A stretch of 32,000 bases of DNA. Origin: Marinomonas mediterranea MMB-1 (GTDB lineage: Bacteria > Pseudomonadota > Gammaproteobacteria > Pseudomonadales > Marinomonadaceae). Made by a program: the position numbers and the translations under genes. The DNA is taken from the NCBI RefSeq assembly GCF_000192865.1, contig NC_015276.1, positions 1,994,364 through 2,026,363 of the forward strand, in the 5' to 3' direction. Shown here piece after piece: positions 9,232 through 20,821 of the stretch; the stretch's first letter is position 1; each line of letters begins with the position of its first letter. The notes below the pieces were generated by a model, which saw nothing but the letters and a program-made list of their open reading frames with translations, had not been told where the DNA came from and made no database searches.

Positions 9232-9420
9232 CTACGCTACTTCCGCATCCAAGGCTTTTTGAGCTTGGATTCGCTTATAGATTTCTTCTCGATGGATTGT
9301 AGTTTCTTTGGGGGCTTCAACGCCTAGGCGCACGCTATTCCCCTTAACACTTAAGACAGTGACTTCGATGTCGTCACCGATGTTGATTACTTCGCCAAGT
9401 TTACGTGTGATTACAAGCAT
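9232..9420 (-). CDS. csrA: CsrA/RsmA-family RNA-binding translational regulator homolog, prophage-encoded
   Basis: [52 protein letters not shown] is collinear with CsrA (MLILTRRVGE..GVKGNQVRIGVNAPKEV.VHREEIY.RI). The ATG at 9420 is preceded by AAAGGA. The 22 upstream codons in the track are rejected. Confidence 0.85.
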
Positions 9421-9681
9421 GATTCCTATCCTTTGGTTGTAAAGTGTTAGACAAATATACAACCAAATATTAGGTTTAGTCAACACTAAAAAGTTGTTAT
9501 GCAGATTTCTTATGTTGTTTGTGTAAATTTAAAAATTTCGTTTTTTATCTATTTAATGCTGAATGTATTGCCAAGACGCTTATAGTTAAGTTTTAATCTG
9601 TCTACAGTCATGGATTGGCTTTCTTTTCGACCTCCTTTCTTTGGCTATACTTTAAGAATTATCTATCTAGGTTTATCTACT

Positions 9682-10806
9682 ATGAGCAAAGCACTTATTA
9701 ACCCTGCCAATATTATTTGGGCGCGCGTGCGTGCGGGTATGTCTGTGTCTCAACTCGCAGATGCCTTAGGTGTTAAGGAGGAAAAAGTAATAGCTTGGGA
9801 AAATGGTGAAAATGCGCCATCTATGGCACAAGCCAGAAATATTGCAGATAAAACCTTAATTTCTTTCGGTTTACTTTTTGCCAAGCAGCCGCCAGCCGAC
9901 GATCTACCAATACCAGATTTACGAACTATTGATGGAAGAGAGCTACAAAAACCTAGCGCTTCTTTGATAGCAATAATCCGAAAAGTGTTAGAGCGCCAAG
10001 AGTGGTATAAGGAATATCGTAAAGATAACCTTAAGCTTGAGAATTCCTTTATAACTCAATTTACTATGGATAGTGATACGTCTTCGGTCGTTGCTGATAT
10101 GCGCAACAGGCTTTCATTGCCAGCGAAACGTTCAGGTAGATGGGATGATTATGAAAGAGTTGTGCGCCAACACATTGAGAAGTTGGGCATAATGGTAATG
10201 AGAGAACGAGACCTTGGTGGGAAAAGTAAACCGCTATTAGTTCAAGAATTTCGAGGTTTTGCTATCTGTGATGACGTTGCCCCAGTTATTTTTATTAACA
10301 GTGCAGATGCGCAAACGGCGCAACTTTTCACCATGCTTCATGAGTTGGCTCACATTTGGATCGGTCAGAGCGGCCTTTCAGATGTTAGTCCAAGCAACCA
10401 TCGTAAAGAAGAAGCCAAATGCAACGCAATTGCCGCTGAGTTTCTAGTACCAGAAGATGAATTCCTTCAAGTCTGGATTGAGAAAGATTGGCGACTACAT
10501 GTTAGTGCAATTGCTAAGCATTTCCATGTGAGTCGATGGGTTATTGTCAGAAGGGCGTTAACGCTAGGGTTGATTACGGAAGCTCAATATTACTCAATGA
10601 TCGAAAGCTACAAGAAAGATCATGAGCGTAACTCCAATGGTGGGCCATCTTACTATACGACCAAAATTTCTCGGCTTGGAAAGAGTTTTGCTAGTGCAGT
10701 TGTATCCGAAGCACTAAGCGGACGTATGTTACTGCGCGATGCAGGGCATTTATTAGGCACCAAGCCTTTAAACGTAAAAAATTTAGCCAAGGAACTAGGT
10801 ATTTAA
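9682..10806 (+). CDS. Fused XRE-type HTH / ImmA-IrrE family zinc metallopeptidase
   Basis: The N-terminal HTH is MSVSQLADALGVKEEKVIAWENGE. An HEXXH motif occurs in MLHELAHIW. I prefer the start at MSKALINP (9682) over the track start at 9610. Confidence 0.8.
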   Translation: MSKALINPANIIWARVRAGMSVSQLADALGVKEEKVIAWENGENAPSMAQARNIADKTLISFGLLFAKQPPADDLPIPDLRTIDGRELQKPSASLIAIIRKVLERQEWYKEYRKDNLKLENSFITQFTMDSDTSSVVADMRNRLSLPAKRSGRWDDYERVVRQHIEKLGIMVMRERDLGGKSKPLLVQEFRGFAICDDVAPVIFINSADAQTAQLFTMLHELAHIWIGQSGLSDVSPSNHRKEEAKCNAIAAEFLVPEDEFLQVWIEKDWRLHVSAIAKHFHVSRWVIVRRALTLGLITEAQYYSMIESYKKDHERNSNGGPSYYTTKISRLGKSFASAVVSEALSGRMLLRDAGHLLGTKPLNVKNLAKELGI

Positions 10807-11354
10807 TGCTGTACTTACTAGATGCGAATATTTACATTCAGGCACAAGGGTCTTATTACGATATGGATTTTTGTCCTGGATTTTGGGCATTCTTAGACAA
10901 GTCGTACAAAAGTGGCCAAATAACGTCAATTAAGCAAGTTCAAAAAGAGCTGAAACAACCGAAGCCAGCGAAAGCCAGAGCTGGTGAAACTCAAAAGCAA
11001 GAGGACAAACTTAGTCTTTGGGTTAAAGAACGCGATGAGCATTTCATTGATGATGAGGACGACTTAACACAAAATTGCTTTGTAGAAGTTGTGGAATATT
11101 TAATGGATCAACCGCACTTAAATGAGGCTAATAGAGACAGCTTCTTGGATGGCGCTGACCCTTGGATAATTTCTAAAGCAATGTCAATAAAGGAATTGGG
11201 TGGGGAAGTTGCTGTAGTCACTCACGAAAAGCTAGTTGCTGAAAACTCAACCAAAGTAAAAGTACCTAATGTATGTAAACATTTTGGTATTGAGGTAATT
11301 GACTGTTTTACCTTACTTCGTACGCTTGAAGCAAGGTTTAGCCTTAGCGCTTAA
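10806..11354 (+). CDS. DUF4411-like (PIN-like fold) protein, putative nuclease/toxin partner of the upstream gene
   Basis: MLYLLDANIYIQAQ..YYDMDFCPGFWAFL.., GADPWIISKA, VVTHEK and KVKVPNVCKHFGIEV match my recollection of DUF4411. Its start overlaps the upstream stop by 1 bp (TAATG), consistent with translational coupling. Confidence 0.65.
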   Translation: MLYLLDANIYIQAQGSYYDMDFCPGFWAFLDKSYKSGQITSIKQVQKELKQPKPAKARAGETQKQEDKLSLWVKERDEHFIDDEDDLTQNCFVEVVEYLMDQPHLNEANRDSFLDGADPWIISKAMSIKELGGEVAVVTHEKLVAENSTKVKVPNVCKHFGIEVIDCFTLLRTLEARFSLSA

Positions 11355-13508: not shown

Positions 13509-14443
13509 CAATTACAAAGGCAGTCGCCGATATTGGGCGTTTAGGTTTTACTGGTAATGTGACGCCTAAAGTGTGGTACAAACAAATCTTAACACCTTCT
13601 GGTAAGCCTGACTTTAAAGCGGTTGCGTTGCTGTCAGAGATTGTTTATTGGTATCGCCCAAGAGAGCTGAGAGACGAGCATACAGGTGCGGTAACAGGTT
13701 ATCAGAGGCGATTCAGCGATGACATGTTACACCGCTCTTACGCTTCGTTTTCTGAAGACTTTGGGATGACAAAGCGTGAAGCACAAGAAGCCATTAAAAG
13801 GTTGCGTGATGCTGGCTTGATTCGTTGTGAGTTGCGTAACAAACAAGTCAATGGAACTCAGCTATCCAATGTTTTATATATCGAACCTGTTGCTCAAAAA
13901 ATAGAAGAGATCACTTTTCCTAAAGCGGTTGAGACCGCCGATGTGACCCCTATCACAAATATTTGTGATACCCCCCAACACGACGATGTGACCCCTATCG
14001 CAAATAATTGTGATACCCCCCACAAAAATTTGGGACACCCCCCACAAATAATTGGGACACCTCCCACAAAAAAACGGGGGACGTATACAGAGATTAACTC
14101 AGAGATTAACTCAGAGACTACACATGAGATTGGTTTGCCCGTTCCGGCAAACCCCAAGCCGAAATCAAAACGCGCCTCGAACGTTCCCGATCAGTTCATC
14201 GTCGATCAGCGAATGCTCGACTGGCTCGTTCAAAACCAAATCACGACCGACTGGCAAAACGAAACCAAGAAATTTATGGATTACCACCAAGCGAACGGCT
14301 CGACGAAAAAAGATTGGGTCGCCGCGTGGCGGCTGTGGATGCGTAACTCCATGAAATTCTCCCAGCAGCGACCGACACCGCCCGCCACAGCGCGGGATCA
14401 AGTTCAGAACAGTCTGTCGAACATTCACGACACAAACTGGTAA
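13505..14443 (+). CDS. Replication initiation / replisome organiser protein (lambda O-like role)
   Basis: There is an N-terminal winged-helix-like region (MTKREAQEAIKRLRDAGLI). An iteron array is embedded mid-gene. It follows the cII/DUF2786 genes with an ATGA overlap. Confidence 0.7.
   Translation: MTITKAVADIGRLGFTGNVTPKVWYKQILTPSGKPDFKAVALLSEIVYWYRPRELRDEHTGAVTGYQRRFSDDMLHRSYASFSEDFGMTKREAQEAIKRLRDAGLIRCELRNKQVNGTQLSNVLYIEPVAQKIEEITFPKAVETADVTPITNICDTPQHDDVTPIANNCDTPHKNLGHPPQIIGTPPTKKRGTYTEINSEINSETTHEIGLPVPANPKPKSKRASNVPDQFIVDQRMLDWLVQNQITTDWQNETKKFMDYHQANGSTKKDWVAAWRLWMRNSMKFSQQRPTPPATARDQVQNSLSNIHDTNW
13940..14120 (+). repeat. Putative phage replication origin: four 22-bp iterons plus 12-bp direct repeats inside the replication gene
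   Basis: Iterons of form ACAAAWAWTTGKGAYACCYCCC occur at 13955-13976, 14000-14021, 14022-14043 and 14044-14065. The first two lie within 37-bp repeats starting GATGTGACCCCTATC at 13940 and 13985. CAGAGATTAACT appears twice (14088-14111) plus a partial third copy. Confidence 0.6.
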
Positions 14444-14452
14444 GGAGCGAAC

Positions 14453-14800
14453 ATGAGAGATTTATTCAACGAGTTTCCAGACACCGAAGCAGCCTACCTT
14501 GAAGTTGCGAACAATGCCCACGACCTAGCGCGCTGGAAACCAAGCCACGAGGTTTTGTACGAAGCGGGGCGCAGAGTTGGGTTCTCCAAAATTCGGCGAC
14601 GTGACACCGGAGCGGGGAAACGGGCGTTTGGCAAAATATACAAAGAAGTTTGCAAAGCCCATATGCGAGGAGAGCGCTTCCCTCGCTCCGTGATAGAACC
14701 GCAAAACACAGGCGAAAAACTCACTGCACGAGAAGTGCACGCCCGTCGTCAGATTGGCCGTGAACGAATTGGAGATATACGAGCGATATTAGAAGGATAA
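14453..14800 (+). CDS. Hypothetical phage protein (115 aa)
   Basis: The ORF has an AAGGAG SD upstream (14442-14447) and sits in the early operon. No domain recognised. Confidence 0.5.
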   Translation: MRDLFNEFPDTEAAYLEVANNAHDLARWKPSHEVLYEAGRRVGFSKIRRRDTGAGKRAFGKIYKEVCKAHMRGERFPRSVIEPQNTGEKLTAREVHARRQIGRERIGDIRAILEG

Positions 14801-14802
14801 CG

Positions 14803-14997
14803 ATGGAACACAAACCCCGAATCAGAGTAAAGCAACTAACACACGCCGTATCGCAACAGGATGTCGATACAACTTGGAAAGCGTTAATGAGCAAGGCACA
14901 CGAGGATGTTGTAAAAGCAAAGCTTCAATATCAGTGCCTAGCCGTCGCCCAACAATACGGATATAACCCATGCGTTGGAAAGACAAAGACAAACTAA
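14803..14997 (+). CDS. Hypothetical phage protein (64 aa)
   Basis: The ORF follows 2 bp after the previous stop. No domain recognised. Confidence 0.4.
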   Translation: MEHKPRIRVKQLTHAVSQQDVDTTWKALMSKAHEDVVKAKLQYQCLAVAQQYGYNPCVGKTKTN

Positions 14998-15497
14998 ACA
15001 CACTCGGTTCGCTCTCATGGCGGATCATAAACGACCACGTAACGTACCTCATATCGAGCACAGCCGACGCAGGATGGAAAGGGGTCGGCAACACAGGGCG
15101 CATTTGTGAATCCTTGATGTTTGGCGTTTCCCCGACCTTTAGTGGTGGCGGTGACAGCAACGCCGCAATGATCCGCCATATAAAAGCCCTGTCAGTAAAA
15201 GACAAAGGGTTCAGTTGGCTCTTTCGTGACCTGTCACGCATGCAAAAGCTTTGCTTATTTGCCGCAGTACTTGCAGAAGGGCGACGAACAATAAAAGGAC
15301 GACCGCTCTCAAACGCCCGTATAGCAGCAACCCTGCCCACCTTCGCCGCAGAACTCAGGCTAGGCCCAGCGCATACCGTGCCGTCTGAAAAGACGTTCGC
15401 GAACAACGTCTCAGAAGGTAGAAAGCGCTTTTTGGCAACGTTAGAAGAAGAGTTGCAATCAAGACTCTCAGAGGACGAGCTGAAAGCGATTGCATGA
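14970..15497 (+). CDS. Hypothetical protein (175 aa) coupled to the second recombinase gene
   Basis: The ORF ends in an ATGA overlap with the gene at 15494. The start is uncertain because it overlaps the previous ORF by 28 nt. A longer antisense ORF exists but is rejected. Confidence 0.45.
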   Translation: MRWKDKDKLNTLGSLSWRIINDHVTYLISSTADAGWKGVGNTGRICESLMFGVSPTFSGGGDSNAAMIRHIKALSVKDKGFSWLFRDLSRMQKLCLFAAVLAEGRRTIKGRPLSNARIAATLPTFAAELRLGPAHTVPSEKTFANNVSEGRKRFLATLEEELQSRLSEDELKAIA

Positions 15498-16660
15498 CCA
15501 AAGCTGTAACGAAGAAAATAACCGACGCATCGATTCGAGCGGCGTTTAAAAAAGAGGTGCGATACCTCTACGACTCCCGCCGAGTCGAATTCCACATCAA
15601 TGCCGCCCGCACGGGTGGCACCTTTTACGATGTCGTATACAAAGGGAAAAAGCGCCAACGTACCAAGCTTGCCAAATGGCCAGCGATCACCGCCGCGAGT
15701 TTGTTTCAAGAGTTACCCGCGATCCGTGCCAATGCGTTGGCCGATCGTAAAGCGCGCCTTGCCGTCTCTACGTATCATACAGCGGGAGAAGTGCTCATGT
15801 GGTTTATGCAACATATCGATGCCGACAAAACGTACTCCGTCTCATACGTTTCTACCGCGTCGAGCTACATTGGCAATCACTTGCTTGCTAAGCTCTCAGA
15901 GGCGACCCTAAGCGAGTTAAACAAAACACGCTTATACAGAACGCTCTACATGCCTATGCAGGCCGATTACGCGCTTTCAACGATAAAAGGTGTAATAAGT
16001 GTATTAAAAACCGCATTCGCCCGCGCATACGAACTAGGGTTGATTGCCAGAAACCCGATTGCAGACATCACCTTTAGCAGCTTCACCACCACACAGCCCG
16101 AAGCCAAGCCCGGCAAACTGAAACCTCACGACTTAAAGGCATTGATAAAAGCCATAAACGGCCAGCCGACACAAAAGCGCGTGTTCTTCATGACGCAACT
16201 GCTCCACGCAACCCGAATAGGGGAGACATCGCTCGCAGAGTGGAAGCAATTTTCCAACGCGCCATTGGAATGGAGCATTCCCGAAGAAAACACCAAGAAC
16301 AACACCGAGCACCGGCTCCCGATCACCCAACACGCTTACGACCTCATACACACACTGCCAAAGCGCGGCGACTATATCTTCTCTTCCAACGGCGACAAAC
16401 CCTATGCCATACGCACTTTAGAGCGTTGGTATCAAAGCCTAAGCGACGAAGTCGGCATCAAATTCACTAGCCACGACATACGCAAACTCGCCCGTGACTG
16501 CTGGCAAGACATGGGCATCGACTGGGTAATAGGGGAAATGCTACTCAACCACGAACGGGATGGGTTGGATAAACGGTACATGCACGCCCATTCCAGAGAA
16601 CAGATGAAAAGGGCGTTGGGAGAGTGGGGGGATGTATTTTGTGTATGTAGTGTTATTTAA
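15494..16660 (+). CDS. Second tyrosine recombinase, P4-like integrase family
   Basis: It has an N-terminal arm-binding-like region, an ATRIGE arginine, and SHDIRKLARD..LNHERDGLDKRYMH (HxxR..H..Y). The family differs from the dusA-adjacent integrase. Confidence 0.8.
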   Translation: MTKAVTKKITDASIRAAFKKEVRYLYDSRRVEFHINAARTGGTFYDVVYKGKKRQRTKLAKWPAITAASLFQELPAIRANALADRKARLAVSTYHTAGEVLMWFMQHIDADKTYSVSYVSTASSYIGNHLLAKLSEATLSELNKTRLYRTLYMPMQADYALSTIKGVISVLKTAFARAYELGLIARNPIADITFSSFTTTQPEAKPGKLKPHDLKALIKAINGQPTQKRVFFMTQLLHATRIGETSLAEWKQFSNAPLEWSIPEENTKNNTEHRLPITQHAYDLIHTLPKRGDYIFSSNGDKPYAIRTLERWYQSLSDEVGIKFTSHDIRKLARDCWQDMGIDWVIGEMLLNHERDGLDKRYMHAHSREQMKRALGEWGDVFCVCSVI

Positions 16661-16682
16661 TGTAATGACTTCTCTTTTGGGT

Positions 16683-16711
16683 TTGACAATCTAAAACAAT
16701 GAGCCAATATT
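16683..16711 (+). promoter_or_regulatory. Candidate sigma-70 promoter for the AT-rich island operon
   Basis: TTGACA (16683-16688), a 17-nt spacer, then AATATT (16706-16711). Located about 90 nt upstream of the first ATG of the 456-aa ORF. Confidence 0.35.
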
Positions 16712-16796
16712 AAACTAACAAAATGCATGGAAACAGACGTATTCTAACATTGTAGTGAGAGATATTGAATTTTGAGGTTCATTTATTCTTTTGGGG

Positions 16797-18161
16797 ATGT
16801 TCATGGATATTGTACTTTTTAATAGCTATGGTAATTTACTAGAAAATAATTATTTCTTTTTGTTTCTCCCAATAATTTTTACTATATTTGTACGTAGTTA
16901 TTTCAAACTTAATAACTCTCACTCTACAAATATTCTTCTTTTAAAATCAAGTGTCTTTCTATTACCAACTTTAATTTTTGTGACGCTGAACTTTCTTAAT
17001 ATGTACAATAAGGATAGTAGTGAAGTTAGTGAACTAAGTGAAGTTAGTGAACTAAGTGAAGTTAGTGAAGTCAGTGAAGTCAGTGAAGTCAGTGAAGTCA
17101 GTGAAGTTAGTAAATTTAGTAAAGCCTCAATTGCACTTGTTTTATCCGATCTTGACTTCGCAGGTATGTTACTATGCTACTTGTTATATGCTATGGCATC
17201 AGCATGGATTACTAATTGTTTATGTCGTAAATATAGTGTGTACAACTACAAGCGGAAGAATAAACATCAGAACATTTCGGAACCTTGCTTAACAAATTCA
17301 CAGAATGATGAGCAACCGTCCTGTTTTACTCCAAAGCAGGACGAGGTCTTTGGCTATCCCTTTGAGCCACTTACAGAGAATTCGCCTTCCTACTTTACCA
17401 GAAATCAAAAGGAGGAATGTCGCCTTATCCCAGAGCCAGACGACTTGCCTCGAAACTATTTACTGTCTCTTGAAAGTGCTCGATATACTTTCTTTAATTG
17501 CTCTAAGAGCAATGAGGAGCTAACTTTGTTCGAAAAAATAGATTTTAGTCTTTGTTGTTTTATTTCGCAGGCTAATAATATTAATGCCGATTACAGCGAA
17601 AAGTTTGCAAAACTTAAGAAAGGCTTTTGGTTAAATAGAGGTGAATTTGGCCGCAAACTAAACTGCCTTCACGCTGAACGTATTAGCTTGATAACCACGA
17701 GCTTTAATAAATGTTTACTACCACAGAATTCTACTTATCTGTCTGTGAGGTTGCGTATTGAAGATGATGGGGTTTATCGCTGTGTTTTCTCAACTCGACC
17801 AGACGGTCATAGGTATCCAGGCGATATTCCAATTGAGTCCGTAAACTTGATTGATGTGTCGCATCAGAAAAAAAAGATAATTTTGATGTCGGAATACCCT
17901 GATTATCATTTCAATACAGTGAATCGAAGCAATATGAAAAGGACTTGCTATTTAGATTATTTAGTCTACTCAATGGGAGGGGAAAGTAGTGATCATAGTG
18001 ATATCAGTTGTGCTATAGAAATTTTGGACGAAAAAGGCATTAATATTATTAAATATTTAATATCCTTAAAGAAGGTTTTTCCCGCGTTTTCACAAGCGCT
18101 TGACTGGGAATATATCCCTTTAAATAACTTTGAAACAGAGTCATTAAAAGAAAATAAATAG
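16797..18161 (+). CDS. Orphan multi-pass membrane protein with an SEV/SEL tandem repeat and ~300-aa C-terminal domain of unknown function
   Basis: A long ORF in very AT-rich DNA. Hydrophobic segments flank a (SEV/SEL)n loop. ATG candidates are at 16797 and 16803, the latter preceded by GGGGA. No family recognised. Confidence 0.6.
   Translation: MFMDIVLFNSYGNLLENNYFFLFLPIIFTIFVRSYFKLNNSHSTNILLLKSSVFLLPTLIFVTLNFLNMYNKDSSEVSELSEVSELSEVSEVSEVSEVSEVSEVSKFSKASIALVLSDLDFAGMLLCYLLYAMASAWITNCLCRKYSVYNYKRKNKHQNISEPCLTNSQNDEQPSCFTPKQDEVFGYPFEPLTENSPSYFTRNQKEECRLIPEPDDLPRNYLLSLESARYTFFNCSKSNEELTLFEKIDFSLCCFISQANNINADYSEKFAKLKKGFWLNRGEFGRKLNCLHAERISLITTSFNKCLLPQNSTYLSVRLRIEDDGVYRCVFSTRPDGHRYPGDIPIESVNLIDVSHQKKKIILMSEYPDYHFNTVNRSNMKRTCYLDYLVYSMGGESSDHSDISCAIEILDEKGINIIKYLISLKKVFPAFSQALDWEYIPLNNFETESLKENK
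17016..17123 (+). repeat. In-frame 9-bp tandem repeat (AGTGAAGTN/AGTGAACTA, ~10 units plus 2 degenerate)
   Basis: Read directly: agtgaagtt agtgaacta agtgaagtt agtgaacta agtgaagtt (agtgaagtc)x4 agtgaagtt agtaaattt agtaaa. It encodes SEVSELSEVSELSEVSEVSEVSEVSEVSEVSKFSK. Confidence 0.9.
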
Positions 18162-18211
18162 AGCTGTCTCAGTGCCTTTATAATATAATGGGGTAGAGAT
18201 AGGGGGAGTTT

Positions 18212-18394
18212 ATGAAAAGAAAAATTCATATTTGTCAATCACCATCATCTTTTAACTTTGAAGATAGTGAAATATTAAGTCCTAATAAAAAATTAAAGAA
18301 GAAAAAGTCTGTGTACGAGCTTTGTCAATATCAAGTTAACTATACAGAATCTGATTTTAACCTAGTTAAAATATTAAGGAATCGCTTTCAATAA
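18212..18394 (+). CDS. Small hypothetical protein (60 aa), lysine-rich
   Basis: A good SD (GGGGGAG) precedes the ATG at suitable spacing. Same strand as the 456-aa gene and 50 nt downstream of it. Confidence 0.4.
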   Translation: MKRKIHICQSPSSFNFEDSEILSPNKKLKKKKSVYELCQYQVNYTESDFNLVKILRNRFQ

Positions 18395-18522
18395 TATGTT
18401 TTTGTGATTGAGTGGGTCTTGATTATTCGCTAAATTTTCATCGTGAAGGCAAGAGGTGGGGTTGTTATTTAATATTACAGATATTAAATCTTAAGTGTAT
18501 TGATCGTGCCATCGTCCTGATC

Positions 18523-18727
18523 TACCATTACCTTGCACTGGCAAAATCCAGTGTCGGGATTAGTACCCGTTTAACCGTAGCGGCCTAGAACACGCTCCGC
18601 GTGTTTTTTTGTGGCCGGAATCCGCCTGTATGGTGGGTCGGTATCAGGCTAGCTTCGGCTAGGCCGTACCTTTGGGCGGTAGTCTCAACCTGTTATTTGA
18701 CCCACCACCTCTATTGAGATTGAGACC
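18523..18727 (+). repeat. Copy 1 of a ~205-bp direct repeat (promoter -10, leader hairpins, structured RNA unit, target motif)
   Basis: It aligns along its full length with 19486-19691, with scattered substitutions and small indels. A putative promoter is TTGATC-17-TACCAT (18500-18528). Hairpins are CACTGG/CCAGTG, CGGG-attagta-CCCG, and CACGC-tcc-GCGTG followed by T7 (18591-18610). Confidence 0.85.
18632..18709 (+). ncRNA. Candidate c4-like (immI-type) antisense RNA, allele 1
   Basis: A ~78-nt unit is closed by GGTGGGTC/GACCCACC and followed by ACC. It has an internal C(UUCG)G-capped hairpin. GTCTCAA (18682-18688) is complementary to TTGAGAC (18720-18726). Structure is conserved in copy 2 with compensatory changes. 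Confidence 0.45.
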
Positions 18728-18765
18728 TTAGTTTTGGGAATCACAGGCAAGTTGGACGATGTGGT

Positions 18766-19374
18766 CTAGTCTTGGTTATTATACAATGCTAAGATTTTTT
18801 TGGTTCCTTCATTTGCAAAATTCCTCAGCTCTCCATCCCAAGAACCACCATCTTTGGCAATTTTACATACACTTTTTTGAAGGCTAATTAGGTCATTAGG
18901 TTGATAGCCATTCAGTATCGTTTCTGTATAGAATGATTGCGTGAAAATTAAAGAAGATTTATATCTGGCCCAACTTTCATTAACTTTCTGAAGTTTTCTT
19001 TTAGTATCGTCTTCCTTTTTGCTATGCCCTTCATCATGGGTTCTATTTTGACGTATGTATTTTTTAAAGTGATATAGCTCGTCAAGATACACAAATAGCT
19101 CCGAAATATGCATTTCATAGCAAAGGCTAAGCTCTTTAATAGCGGCTGTTTTATTCTCTAAGAAATGCTGTTTTTTTGTTCTCTCTTCCCAAGTGCTGAA
19201 AGATTTATAAGCAAAAAATGCCGCGAAGGCGGTGGCGCATCCGGCAACAATGCCTGCGAAACTAGCAATGTGGGATAGAGCAATGTCTCCTCCGACAGCC
19301 CCTAGCATGTAGCAAAATAACCCAATAAAAAAACTGCACACCCACCAACTAGCATCCTTGAACATACTTTTCAC
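18766..19374 (-). CDS. Orphan membrane protein (202 aa; two N-terminal TM helices plus helical soluble domain)
   Basis: The ORF lies on the opposite strand between the two repeat copies. TM segments are WWVCSFFIGLFCYMLGAVGG and IASFAGIVAGCATAFAAFFAY. AAGGTG lies upstream of the ATG. No family recognised. Confidence 0.6.
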   Translation of the reverse strand: MKSMFKDASWWVCSFFIGLFCYMLGAVGGDIALSHIASFAGIVAGCATAFAAFFAYKSFSTWEERTKKQHFLENKTAAIKELSLCYEMHISELFVYLDELYHFKKYIRQNRTHDEGHSKKEDDTKRKLQKVNESWARYKSSLIFTQSFYTETILNGYQPNDLISLQKSVCKIAKDGGSWDGELRNFANEGTKKILALYNNQD

Positions 19375-19485
19375 ACCTTTTCTGACTGTTTTTGCATTGT
19401 AATCGTCGTATTAAATTTTATGGCGTTTAATATAGCACTTATTAAATTAAAGGGCTTAATGCTTGAAATGCATTCAAGCTAATAC

Positions 19486-19691
19486 TAACATTACCCTGCA
19501 CTGGCAAAATCCAGTGTCGGGATTAGTACCCCGTTTAACCGTAGCGGCCTAAGACACGCACCGCGTGTTTTTTTGTGGCCGAAATCCGCCTGTTATGGTG
19601 GGTCTATTTTGGGCTAGCTTCGGCTAGGCCGTTCCTACGGGCGGTAGTACTAACCTGATTTAGATCCACCACCTTAATAGAGATTAGTACC
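19486..19691 (+). repeat. Copy 2 of the ~205-bp direct repeat, immediately upstream of the KilA-N gene
   Basis: The putative promoter is TTGAAA-17-TAACAT (19463-19491). The hairpin series matches copy 1, including CACGC-acc-GCGTG followed by T7 (19555-19574). Confidence 0.85.
19597..19673 (+). ncRNA. Candidate c4-like (immI-type) antisense RNA, allele 2
   Basis: A 77-nt unit is closed by GGTGGGTCT/AGATCCACC, with one G-U pair tolerated only in plus-strand RNA. GTACTAA (19647-19653) is complementary to TTAGTAC at 19684-19690 and 19524-19530. GGCCGTTCCTACG (19627-19639) is complementary to CGTAGGAGGCC (19716-19726), which covers the downstream SD. Confidence 0.5.
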
Positions 19692-19727
19692 TCTTTAGGG
19701 TGGTCAAACTTCGACCGTAGGAGGCCA

Positions 19728-20306
19728 ATGATGGCTCACTTAATGATTGCTTCAAAAGACATCCGCACACTCGACGGATTGTATTCCCTTAATGATCTTC
19801 ATAAAGCGTCTGGCTCAGAATCGCGCCATTTACCCGCTCAGTTCCTAAGAAACCAACAAACAAAAGAATTAATAGCTGAAATTGATAACTATGCTAATTC
19901 GCATAGTTTAGCGGTAAATAAAAATCAGGGTAGAAGCGGTGGCACTTGGGTCTGCAAAGAACTGGTTTATGCTTACGCCATGTGGATCAGCCCGAAGTTC
20001 AATCTAGAAGTAATTCGCGCCTTCGATCAAGCCCAAACAGAACAACCGCCAGAACCCATTCAACAAAGCTTACCCGCCCCAATCCAAGACGACGAAAAAC
20101 TCAAACTCATTAACGACGTTGCCAAATCTTTAGGCATTACCGAAAGCATCGCCGTCGTCTCCGCCACCGACATCATGGCCATGATCCAAACCATCCGAAA
20201 CTACCAACAACAACTCGCCAGAATCCAAACCAACCCCGCATGGGTCGACCAAACCATCGAACGTGTGAAAACCGCAACAGGACGGGGTTTTGGTGATGGG
20301 ATATAA
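19728..20306 (+). CDS. KilA-N domain protein, antirepressor-like
   Basis: The N-terminal region LYSLNDLHKASG..PAQFLRNQQTKELI..GGTWVCKELVYAYAMWISPKF is a typical KilA-N domain. The AGGAGG SD at 19719-19724 favours the second ATG (19731) as the start. Confidence 0.8.
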   Translation: MMAHLMIASKDIRTLDGLYSLNDLHKASGSESRHLPAQFLRNQQTKELIAEIDNYANSHSLAVNKNQGRSGGTWVCKELVYAYAMWISPKFNLEVIRAFDQAQTEQPPEPIQQSLPAPIQDDEKLKLINDVAKSLGITESIAVVSATDIMAMIQTIRNYQQQLARIQTNPAWVDQTIERVKTATGRGFGDGI

Positions 20307-20344
20307 CACAACTTTTTCTTGAGCGAATGTGATAGTTATCGCTA

Positions 20345-20364
20345 TACTGTATAAATATACAGTA
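20345..20364. promoter_or_regulatory. LexA (SOS) box upstream of umuD
   Basis: TACTGTATAAATATACAGTA is a near-perfect match to the gammaproteobacterial CTGT-N8-ACAG consensus. It ends 1 nt before the umuD ORF. Confidence 0.85.
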
Positions 20365-20365
20365 T

Positions 20366-20821
20366 ATGGTGCTTGCTATGCGTGTGACTTACCTTGGGTC
20401 GGCGGAATCGTCGGCTTTTTTGTCTTCGAACAAGATGCAGATCCCGCTTTATGTCGAGTCTGTGTCTGCCGGGTTTCCGTCTCCAGCGCAGGATTTTGTT
20501 GAGCGTACGCTTGATTTAAACGAGCTGTGCATTCAACACCCCAGTGCAACGTTTTTTGTACGTGCTCAGGGGGATTCGATGATAGAAGCGGGGATTCATT
20601 GCGGGGATGTTCTGGTGGTCGATCGCTCGCTAACGTCTAAACATGGCGACATCGTTATTGCGTGTGTGCATGGGGAAATGACTGTTAAGGTATTGGAGTT
20701 AATGCCTGCTGTCGCGTTGCGACCACGTAATAAAGCGTACCCTGTTATCCCTATCTCGGAAGAAAGCGGTTTAGAGGTGTTTGGTGTTGTCACTGGTGTC
20801 GTGCGTAAGATAGAACGATGA
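20366..20821 (+). CDS. umuD: UmuD-like S24 peptidase (translesion polymerase V accessory subunit)
   Basis: [54 protein letters not shown] is collinear with E. coli UmuD. The start could alternatively be the Met at 20378. Confidence 0.9.

Follow-up and report, generated by a model that had tools for sequence, protein, structure and literature searches.

A prophage cargo slot in Marinomonas mediterranea MMB-1 with two candidate lysogen-protective membrane proteins and a probable relic immI leader

The AT-rich island of MEDPRO1

Marinomonas mediterranea MMB-1 carries MEDPRO1, a defective prophage of ~52 kb that is related to VP882 and lies beside dusA; strain MMB-2 carries it as well, and strain MMB-3 lacks it (PMC10870725). 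Genetic tools, native phages, and transcriptome data are available for MMB-1, which is a laboratory strain. We analyzed a stretch of 32,000 nucleotides (nt) of MMB-1 DNA (the window; NC_015276.1, positions 1,994,364 to 2,026,363, with coordinates counted from its first nucleotide), and in particular an AT-rich island at 16661-19485 between a tyrosine recombinase gene and a KilA-N antirepressor gene. The explanation that we favor, at a probability of about 60%, is that 16.64-19.50 kb is a temperate-phage cargo slot carrying two candidate lysogen-protective membrane proteins, GV053_09220 (452 amino acids [aa]) and GV053_09225 (199 aa, hereafter tm199), together with a relic immI leader. The island is a prophage defense or moron hotspot: its flanks are conserved, its cargo is unrelated from one relative to the next, and known defense genes occupy the position in relatives. 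Loci of this kind are already known; the cargo in MMB-1 is uncharacterized. Locus tags (GV053_) are those of CP047696.1, also from strain MMB-1, to which the window sequence is identical. Table S1 of the MEDPRO1 description lists GV053_09215 as recombinase, GV053_09220 and GV053_09225 as "Hyp", and GV053_09230 as KilA-N, with no RNA genes annotated (PMC10870725).

We propose that the slot, reaching from the recombinase gene to the isrK-C4-KilA-N region, swaps AT-rich accessory genes when its conserved flanks recombine, and that in MMB-1 it would hold two independent modules, GV053_09220 and tm199.

The base composition bore out the original prediction, made from the sequence alone, of an abrupt shift to AT-rich DNA at the recombinase stop codon. 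GC content fell from 0.511 over 14100-16660 to 0.336 over 16661-18521 (window mean 0.441, standard deviation 0.029). The latter segment ranked 3rd among 1507 overlapping 1861-bp windows, the lowest of which (0.333) begins at 16641. On the left, the change is abrupt and coincides with the end of homology among related phages, ~20 nt before the recombinase stop. By segment, GC was 0.346 in the 452-aa gene, 0.308 over 18162-18521, 0.527 over 18522-18728, 0.380 in the minus-strand gene, 0.294 over 19366-19484, and 0.500 over 19485-19692. The island had been described as one unit ahead of an immI-like locus, and this did not hold: the GC-rich segment at 18522-18728 is an extra isrK and C4 leader, and because the isrK and C4 pair is already present at 18535-18712, the immI-like locus begins inside the island. 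Megablast of 14000-20400 against phage and E. coli collections gave no matches.

The left flank is the conserved tyrosine recombinase gene int388 (GV053_09215; 15494..16660, plus strand; Pfam Phage_integrase 1e-14, PHROG 1). The recombinase is 51-77% identical in 12 related loci, and the 3' end of its gene is the left boundary of the slot. The right conserved flank is the KilA-N antirepressor gene (19728..20306, plus strand; Pfam KilA-N 7e-23, PHROG anti-repressor families), which is controlled by an immI leader and is 76-87% conserved in L015, L017-L019, and L022 by tblastn. Homology among relatives restarts at the isrK -35 element.

Variable cargo in related prophages

Related loci were found by a recombinase search (L017-L020 from IMG/VR and L021-L028 from metagenomes) or through tm199 homologues (L030-L032, L007/L008, and L015). 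The recombinase or a remnant of it was present in 14 related loci besides MMB-1/MMB-2, and half of these (7/14; L017-L020, L022, L025, and L030) keep the upstream genes cI, CP76, repO, P, and o175. The common order, determined by tblastn, is cI, CP76, (DUF7168), repO, P-like, o175, recombinase, gap, KilA-N, (gap), umuDC, and holin. Slot GC was 0.27-0.36, compared to 0.34-0.44 for whole loci. The 15 fetched contexts, with MMB-1/MMB-2 counted as one, held 13 distinct cargo sets, and all-against-all BLASTP of the slot cargo proteins found no relationships among them. A comparison of related prophages had been proposed together with the original prediction; it identified the position as a cargo hotspot with a different gene set in each relative, and the 14 loci upheld the view that an accessory island of foreign composition occupies a variable position of the prophage.

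Four of the cargo sets had PADLOC matches at E <= 4e-58. These were AbiO/Nhi in L018 (5e-162), NsnA/PD-T4-2_A (DUF262; 4e-58) with a MAE_28990 HEPN protein (3e-29) in L019, a split dCTP deaminase in L020 (3e-118), and a PDC-S35 TIR-like protein (2e-82) next to two unknown proteins in L026. Other slots held an HTH_37 protein (L017), a lipoprotein and a WG-repeat protein (L022), a hemagglutinin-like protein (L024), a 532-aa transmembrane (TM) orphan (L027), a DUF4747 protein with 194-aa and 383-aa proteins followed by tm199 (L007), and unknown proteins of 345 and 529 aa followed by tm199 (L030). A 282-aa TM protein of L026 was considered as a possible carrier of the C-terminal domain of GV053_09220 and was ruled out (hhalign probability 0.8%).

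The slot resembles the hotspots of P2-like phages and P4-like satellites, where a fixed position flanked by conserved phage genes carries different foreign cargo in each relative, known defense systems included (PMC9122126). It differs from them in belonging to another phage family, in having the recombinase 3' end and the isrK promoter as flanks, and in that the MMB-1 cargo matches no described system.

GV053_09220, a putative membrane sensor-effector

GV053_09220 (16803..18161, plus strand) is a real gene. Its stop-free run of 461 codons compares with a maximum of 153 in 1000 shuffles, and its ratio of nonsynonymous to synonymous changes (pN/pS) between MMB-1 and MMB-2 is 0.17. Among the fetched loci, it is known from these two strains only. 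The lengths of 456 and 202 aa predicted earlier for this protein and tm199 correspond to a TTG start at 16791 and a GTG start, respectively, whereas the ATG starts annotated by NCBI give 452 and 199 aa. The alternatives (TTG 16791 and the first ATG at 16797 for the 452-aa protein, and the GTG for the 199-aa protein) have no exact database match, unlike ATG 16803 and ATG 19365.

None of the three open reading frames (ORFs) that had been predicted in the island, namely these two and a 60-aa frame, belongs to a recognizable family, as had been stated: Pfam, PHROG, PADLOC, and NCBIfam gave no match for GV053_09220 (PADLOC at E <= 0.1) and no significant match for the others. The proposed scan with defense models (PADLOC) returned nothing significant for any of the three. 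A hydropathy scan found 3 hydrophobic helices in GV053_09220, at about aa 17-33, 43-66, and 109-137; the minus-strand tm199 has 2 TM helices. Both results agree with the prediction of two membrane proteins, and one of the three ORFs is on the opposite strand, as predicted. From hydropathy and the positive-inside rule, GV053_09220 is predicted to be oriented N-out and C-in, with a periplasmic loop between TM2 and TM3 and a cytoplasmic linker.

The TM2-TM3 loop is encoded by an in-frame 9-nt tandem repeat with the consensus TAGTGAAGT (17018..17124, plus strand; 11.9 copies by Tandem Repeats Finder and a repeat search). The repeat encodes an acidic (S-E-V/L)n stretch, the SEV loop, and has 12 copies in MMB-1 compared to 25 in MMB-2, a difference of 117 nt or 13 units that keeps the frame. 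Outside the repeat, the gene differs between the strains by a handful of substitutions.

Upstream of the gene, the promoter-like site TTGACA-17-AATATT (16683..16711, plus strand) is present as predicted and has 10/12 consensus matches in the scan. It does not, however, rise above what shuffled sequences give (8 promoter-like sites found, against 10.3 +/- 3.7 in shuffles), and it is located in cargo-specific DNA and has no comparative support.

A word-indexed search with the 452-aa protein was empty, probably because it was swamped by the SEV repeat. Exhaustive HMMER searching, in which all matches were weak, found a C-terminal similarity of ~130 aa to the proteins P0016 and P0017 (E ~4e-5 library-wide; pairwise E 1e-13 and 9e-13, respectively). 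Two eukaryotic Ig-repeat matches were dismissed as spurious similarity to "LRIEDDGVYRC". In P0016, P0023, and P0024, a TM region precedes the GV053_09220-type C-terminal domain; in P0017, a Cap12/Pycsar-type TIR domain precedes it. By sequence comparison, the exchange of TM and TIR regions on a shared C-terminal domain is solid. Invariant residues of the domain are R316, E320, T331, R332, P339, G340, H369, and Y383/386/389 in the numbering of the 452-aa protein.

The AlphaFold2 (AF2) model of GV053_09220 is poor, with a predicted local distance difference test score (pLDDT) of 42 overall and 50-64 over aa 290-440. In the GAF fold, helices flank a central antiparallel sheet; the order of elements in this low-confidence model over aa 290-440 is helix, two strands, helix, strands, and helix. 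When the model was compared to the PDB by Foldseek, nearly all matches were GAF or GAF-like (IclR-type) domains, the best at E 1.4e-3; they included PtsP, PDE5/6, CyaB2, fRMsr, and Lcd1, with target TM-scores of 0.5-0.6 for single-domain GAF structures. We tentatively regard the C-terminal alpha/beta domain (about aa 290-440) as GAF-like on the strength of this model.

GV053_09220 would then be a single-protein sensor-effector, expressed in the lysogen, whose cytoplasmic C-terminal domain probably has a GAF-like fold, binds a ligand, and governs the N-terminal 3-TM domain. Once activated, the 3-TM domain would damage or gate the inner membrane, and this damage would abort infection or exclude superinfecting phage. 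Superinfection exclusion or abortive infection (Abi) had been guessed for the island before, and the fusion of the tentatively GAF-like domain to a Cap12/Pycsar-type TIR as well adds new, model-based support for such a mechanism. TM or TIR effectors joined to a putative sensor domain also recall Pycsar (PycTM/PycTIR) and CBASS (Cap12 TIR, Cap14/15 TM). In contrast to those systems, the GV053_09220 sensor is tentatively GAF-like rather than cNMP-binding (cyclic nucleotide monophosphate-binding), SAVED, or beta-barrel, the effector occupies the N-terminal part, the neighborhood has no cyclase gene, and PADLOC gives no match.

A further-reaching proposal is that GV053_09220 and its relatives form an undescribed stand-alone Abi family with a GAF-like sensor, and that tm199 expression is cross-wired to the isrK/C4 switch; we consider this doubtful. 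The sensor of such a family would be wired to interchangeable killing modules, either 3-TM or a Cap12/Pycsar-type TIR NADase, and would respond to a nucleotide or small molecule arising during infection, so that an operon cyclase would be unneeded. The cross-wiring would couple tm199 to isrK/C4 through the convergent extra leader.

tm199, a membrane protein of the immI neighborhood

The tm199 gene (GV053_09225; 18766..19365, minus strand, from ATG 19365) has 12 homologues in Marinomonas and marine metagenomes, the full-length ones being 41-89% identical. Its pN/pS of 0.18-0.35 in distant comparisons indicates purifying selection. The AF2 model (pLDDT 81.6) is all helices, with an N-terminal 2-TM hairpin followed by a helical bundle that is predicted to be cytoplasmic. 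A fold search gave no significant PDB or BFVD match, only generic helical bundles (best BFVD E 0.047), and no family was matched in Pfam, PHROG, or NCBIfam; the best PADLOC match was a 2TM effector model (E 0.039, 11.7 bits).

In 6/6 independent contexts (MMB-1/MMB-2, L007/L008, L009-L011, L015, L029, and L030-L032), tm199 or its homologue adjoins an isrK leader divergently. With isrK adjacent in every context, tm199 belongs to the immI neighborhood, whereas the 452-aa gene is confined to MMB-1 and MMB-2. The intergenic region between tm199 and the isrK copy of the resident immI unit (isrK-2) at 19366..19497 is conserved in alignments of the window, L007, L009, and L015, and a region of this type was found solely beside tm199 homologues. 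It contains a copy-2-type isrK promoter, TTGAAA-17-TAACAT (19463-19491, plus strand; promoter scan), which differs in type from the promoters of the single-copy isrK genes of the family. The tm199 promoter presumably lies in this region too. In L009 (10965-12358), genes beside the tm199 homologue have weak Pfam matches to CTD10 and MC6, domains from conflict-system surveys, and no PADLOC match.

We suggest that tm199 is a lysogen-expressed superinfection-exclusion or immunity-associated membrane protein. Its gene travels together with the intergenic region and lies just ahead of an isrK leader, in the opposite orientation. Superinfection-exclusion membrane proteins are found beside immunity regions in several phages, as with sim by c4 in P1, rexB in lambda, and sieB in P22. 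Like these, tm199 is small, apparently resides in the inner membrane, and is encoded beside an immunity region on the strand opposite the antirepressor operon; in contrast to them, its main domain is predicted to be cytoplasmic, and it shares no sequence or fold similarity with them. By its position only, tm199 may be considered analogous to sim beside c4 in P1.

The two candidate proteins could instead be functionless relics in the decaying DNA of a defective prophage. Several results are in line with this: no MEDPRO1 products were detected after induction (PMC10870725), the 452-aa protein is confined to MMB-1 and MMB-2, the first leader copy is truncated, and tm199 has a pN/pS of 0.68 between MMB-1 and MMB-2. 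We nevertheless regard decay as very improbable. Both ORFs are intact in both strains, the 117-nt change in the repeat preserved the frame, and the low pN/pS values of the 452-aa gene, and of tm199 at larger distances, point to selection; moreover, a 461-codon frame in DNA of 35% GC would be unlikely to last under neutral decay.

Two isrK and C4 leaders

Processing of the immI transcript of phages P1 and P7 releases C4, whose b' loop occludes the ribosome-binding site of the gene preceding ant while its a' loop confers specificity (PMC5320573). Short IsrK of Gifsy-1 targets the read-through isrK-orf45-anrP mRNA in trans (PMC4825925). The window contains two leaders of this type, since 18522-18728 is a direct repeat (~207 bp) of 19485-19692, 76-96% identical by segment, and the two copies bracket tm199. 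In the order in which they occur on the plus strand, the RNAs are the extra copies isrK-1 (18535..18609; a small RNA gene with an intrinsic terminator; Rfam RF01394, 58.9 bits) and C4-1 (18626..18712; an antisense RNA; RF01695, 54.7 bits), followed by isrK-2 (19498..19573; the small RNA gene of the resident immI unit; RF01394, 66.2 bits) and C4-2 (19591..19676; an antisense RNA; RF01695, 56.2 bits). Both copies of each RNA pass the Rfam gathering scores of 50 bits for RF01394, a family with two 5' hairpins and an intrinsic terminator, and 45 bits for RF01695. The isrK-1 promoter, TTGATC-17-TACCAT (18500..18528, plus strand), is of the canonical type of the phage family: a TTGAyC...CCTGATCTACyAT block precedes the single isrK of L017, L018, L019, and L022 and the copy-1 isrK of L007 and L009.

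In the resident unit, C4-2 has the a' loop GUACUAA (19647-19653), complementary over 7 nt to the a2 site TTAGTAC (19684-19690), and the b' loop UCCUACGG (19633-19640), complementary over 8 nt to the b2 site CCGTAGGA (19715-19722). The b2 site overlaps the Shine-Dalgarno sequence of KilA-N. The unit is similar to P1/P7 immI and Gifsy-1 isrK-orf45-anrP in that the C4 loops complement a2 and b2 at the antirepressor ribosome-binding site, and differs in having no upstream ORF like icd or orf45, as the direct pairing of C4-2 with the Shine-Dalgarno sequence of KilA-N shows. It also differs in that there are two leaders, of which the first is chimeric and has neither b2 nor a controlled gene, with a membrane-protein gene between them.

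The specificity loops of C4-1 are a' GUCUCAA (18682-18688) and b' ACCUUUGG (18668-18675). Copy 1 retains the a2 site TTGAGAC (18720..18726, plus strand), a 7-nt Watson-Crick complement of a', but no b2/Shine-Dalgarno site or controlled gene was found for it, and the complement of b' ACCUUUGG occurs nowhere else in the window. The isrK-1 sequence is 95% identical to isrK-2, and both carry a1/b1 sites that match C4-2, not C4-1. Because it has a2 only, without b2 or a gene, and because the isrK-1 sites fit C4-2, copy 1 is, judged by its sequence, a truncated, recombined (chimeric) unit. Copy 1 of MMB-2 is also chimeric, in a different manner from that of MMB-1. The copy 1 leader is probably a relic, left either by a second immI unit or by the recombination event through which tm199 arrived.

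The sets a'/a2/a1 and b'/b2/b1 are self-consistent in L017, L018, L019, and L022, with different sequences, giving at least four specificity types. The second isrK hairpin and the unpaired stretch after it carry the a1 and b1 sites, copies of the C4 target sites that co-vary with the C4 loops; isrK thus resembles a built-in C4-target mimic. The C4 of L015 does not match its targets.

Three other readings of copy 1 were considered. The 207-bp repeat as a pair of cassette attachment sites was rejected as the principal explanation, the repeat being a whole functional RNA unit; its length varies between loci, covering isrK and C4 here and isrK only in L007 and L009, and tandem immI units are frequent in other phages. 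An extension of immunity to another phage type by C4-1 is unsupported, as its a' fits L017-type leaders and its b' fits none seen. The idea that copy 1 reaches a relic ATG at 18759 was also set aside, the alignment being unconvincing past ~18737.

Alternatively, tm199 and isrK-1 could serve not as an exclusion device but as a regulatory part of the immI switch. Transcription running past isrK-1 would yield RNA antisense to the tm199 mRNA at its 3' end, and a tm199 mRNA that fails to terminate would run antisense to isrK-1 and C4-1 and nearly so to isrK-2, which would couple expression of the membrane protein to antirepressor control. The arrangement lends this idea some credit, as tm199 and C4-1 are convergent with no intrinsic terminator found between them, a second isrK lies downstream of tm199 in 3/6 independent contexts with two different junctions, and isrK-1, nearly identical to isrK-2, bears the a1/b1 of C4-2. 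Antisense partners of C4-like RNAs have also been reported in Acinetobacter (PMC5320573). We nonetheless find it quite improbable, as tm199 homologues occur with a single isrK in L015, L029, and L030-L032, copy 1 has a chimeric structure that is not the same in MMB-1 and MMB-2, as expected of a relic, and tandem immI units are common without any tm199.

The isrK core motif was found in >120 viral stretches in IMG/VR, and about 8 of the ~78 IMG/VR contigs listed have two or three isrK-C4 units. In the multi-unit contigs L038, L065, L098, L103, L104, and L110, the units are arranged in tandem, inverted, or divergently; those of L038 are in tandem around a Bro-N-type antirepressor.

Defense cargo or ordinary morons

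A number of results weigh against the explanation that the slot carries lysogen-protective proteins. MEDPRO1 is reported to be defective (PMC10870725). Position alone is not proof of an anti-phage role, because some of the cargo of relatives, namely that of L022 and L024, is not defense-like in appearance. The GAF call comes from a low-pLDDT model with Foldseek E values of 1e-3 to 0.1; Pfam GAF (PF01590, PF13185) was absent from the C-terminal domain of three family members even at E <= 10, and a PDB sequence search of the C-terminal domain matched no GAF protein. No nucleotide cyclase or other signal generator was found among the called genes at 6803-29365 (22.6 kb). P0016, too, stands alone in an unremarkable chromosomal context in Pseudoalteromonas, with housekeeping-type neighbors, and none of the three island ORFs matches PADLOC beyond the E 0.039 of tm199. 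Given a frameshift in the L015 gene and a split one in L030-L032, tm199 is dispensable, and because multiple isrK-C4 units are common in phages, the extra leader needs no special function.

Some of these points also speak for ordinary moron cargo with no anti-phage role, such as envelope or host-physiology factors; the 452-aa protein would in that case sense a host metabolite at the membrane, and tm199 would act as a membrane scaffold. Lipoprotein, WG-repeat, and hemagglutinin-like proteins fill the same slot in other members, the cargo ORFs have no PADLOC match, P0016, the closest TM homologue, has housekeeping-type neighbors, and GAF domains serve mainly in general signaling. Yet bona fide defense genes occupy the exact slot in four relatives, the C-terminal domain also occurs joined to a TIR of Cap12/Pycsar type, which is an NADase effector characteristic of abortive infection, and every context links tm199 to the immunity region of the phage. 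We consider ordinary morons unlikely.

If the positional argument for defense cargo is true, the recombinase-to-isrK slot would be a mining site for new anti-phage genes in this marine phage family; four known systems have already come from it, along with at least seven cargo sets that lack annotation. With the 452-aa protein, the signal-gated membrane and TIR effectors would gain another sensor domain, and the isrK/C4 antirepressor switch, which is widespread, would have a conserved companion in tm199. If the genes are inert, the locus would be one more moron slot in a defective prophage.

Other features of the island and prophage

Of the three ORFs in the original prediction, those of 452 and 199 aa are confirmed as genes, whereas the 60-aa ORF (18212..18394, plus strand) is unsupported as a coding sequence. 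It has a Shine-Dalgarno-like GGGGGAG upstream and one nonsynonymous difference between MMB-1 and MMB-2. It has no NCBI call, no tblastn homologue in the fetched loci beyond the sister strain, and no family match in Pfam, PHROG, or, at E <= 0.1, PADLOC. An ORF at 18412-18588 overlaps isrK-1 and was rejected as spurious.

A 175-aa protein without a family, o175, is encoded at 14970-15497 (plus strand), with a 4-nt overlap with the start of the recombinase gene. At 64-78% identity, it is conserved with the recombinase in all relatives that retain the upstream flank, and it may be a partner of the recombinase. In the chromosomal islands L007 (13550-14301) and L015 (9343-10278), the recombinase gene is reduced to its C-terminal part, and the remnant abuts a small RNA gene, that of the signal recognition particle RNA in L007 and a tRNA cluster in L015; these remnants may bear on the role of the second recombinase.

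Between the dusA-side integrase and the cI repressor, a RosmerTA-like pair is present at 9610-11354 (plus strand). Its first member is a 398-aa protein with helix-turn-helix and M78 peptidase domains that matches PADLOC RmrA (E 1e-22), and a DUF4411 protein (182 aa) follows 3' of it with a 1-nt overlap. The prophage also bears a CsrA homologue of 62 aa (PF02599) at ~9232-9420 (minus strand), as does the related phage L030.

A second variable point lies at the KilA-N/umuD junction (~20306-20340), where MMB-2 has ~740 nt more with a 211-aa ORF that has no PADLOC match. The most diverged gene between MMB-1 and MMB-2 is KilA-N.

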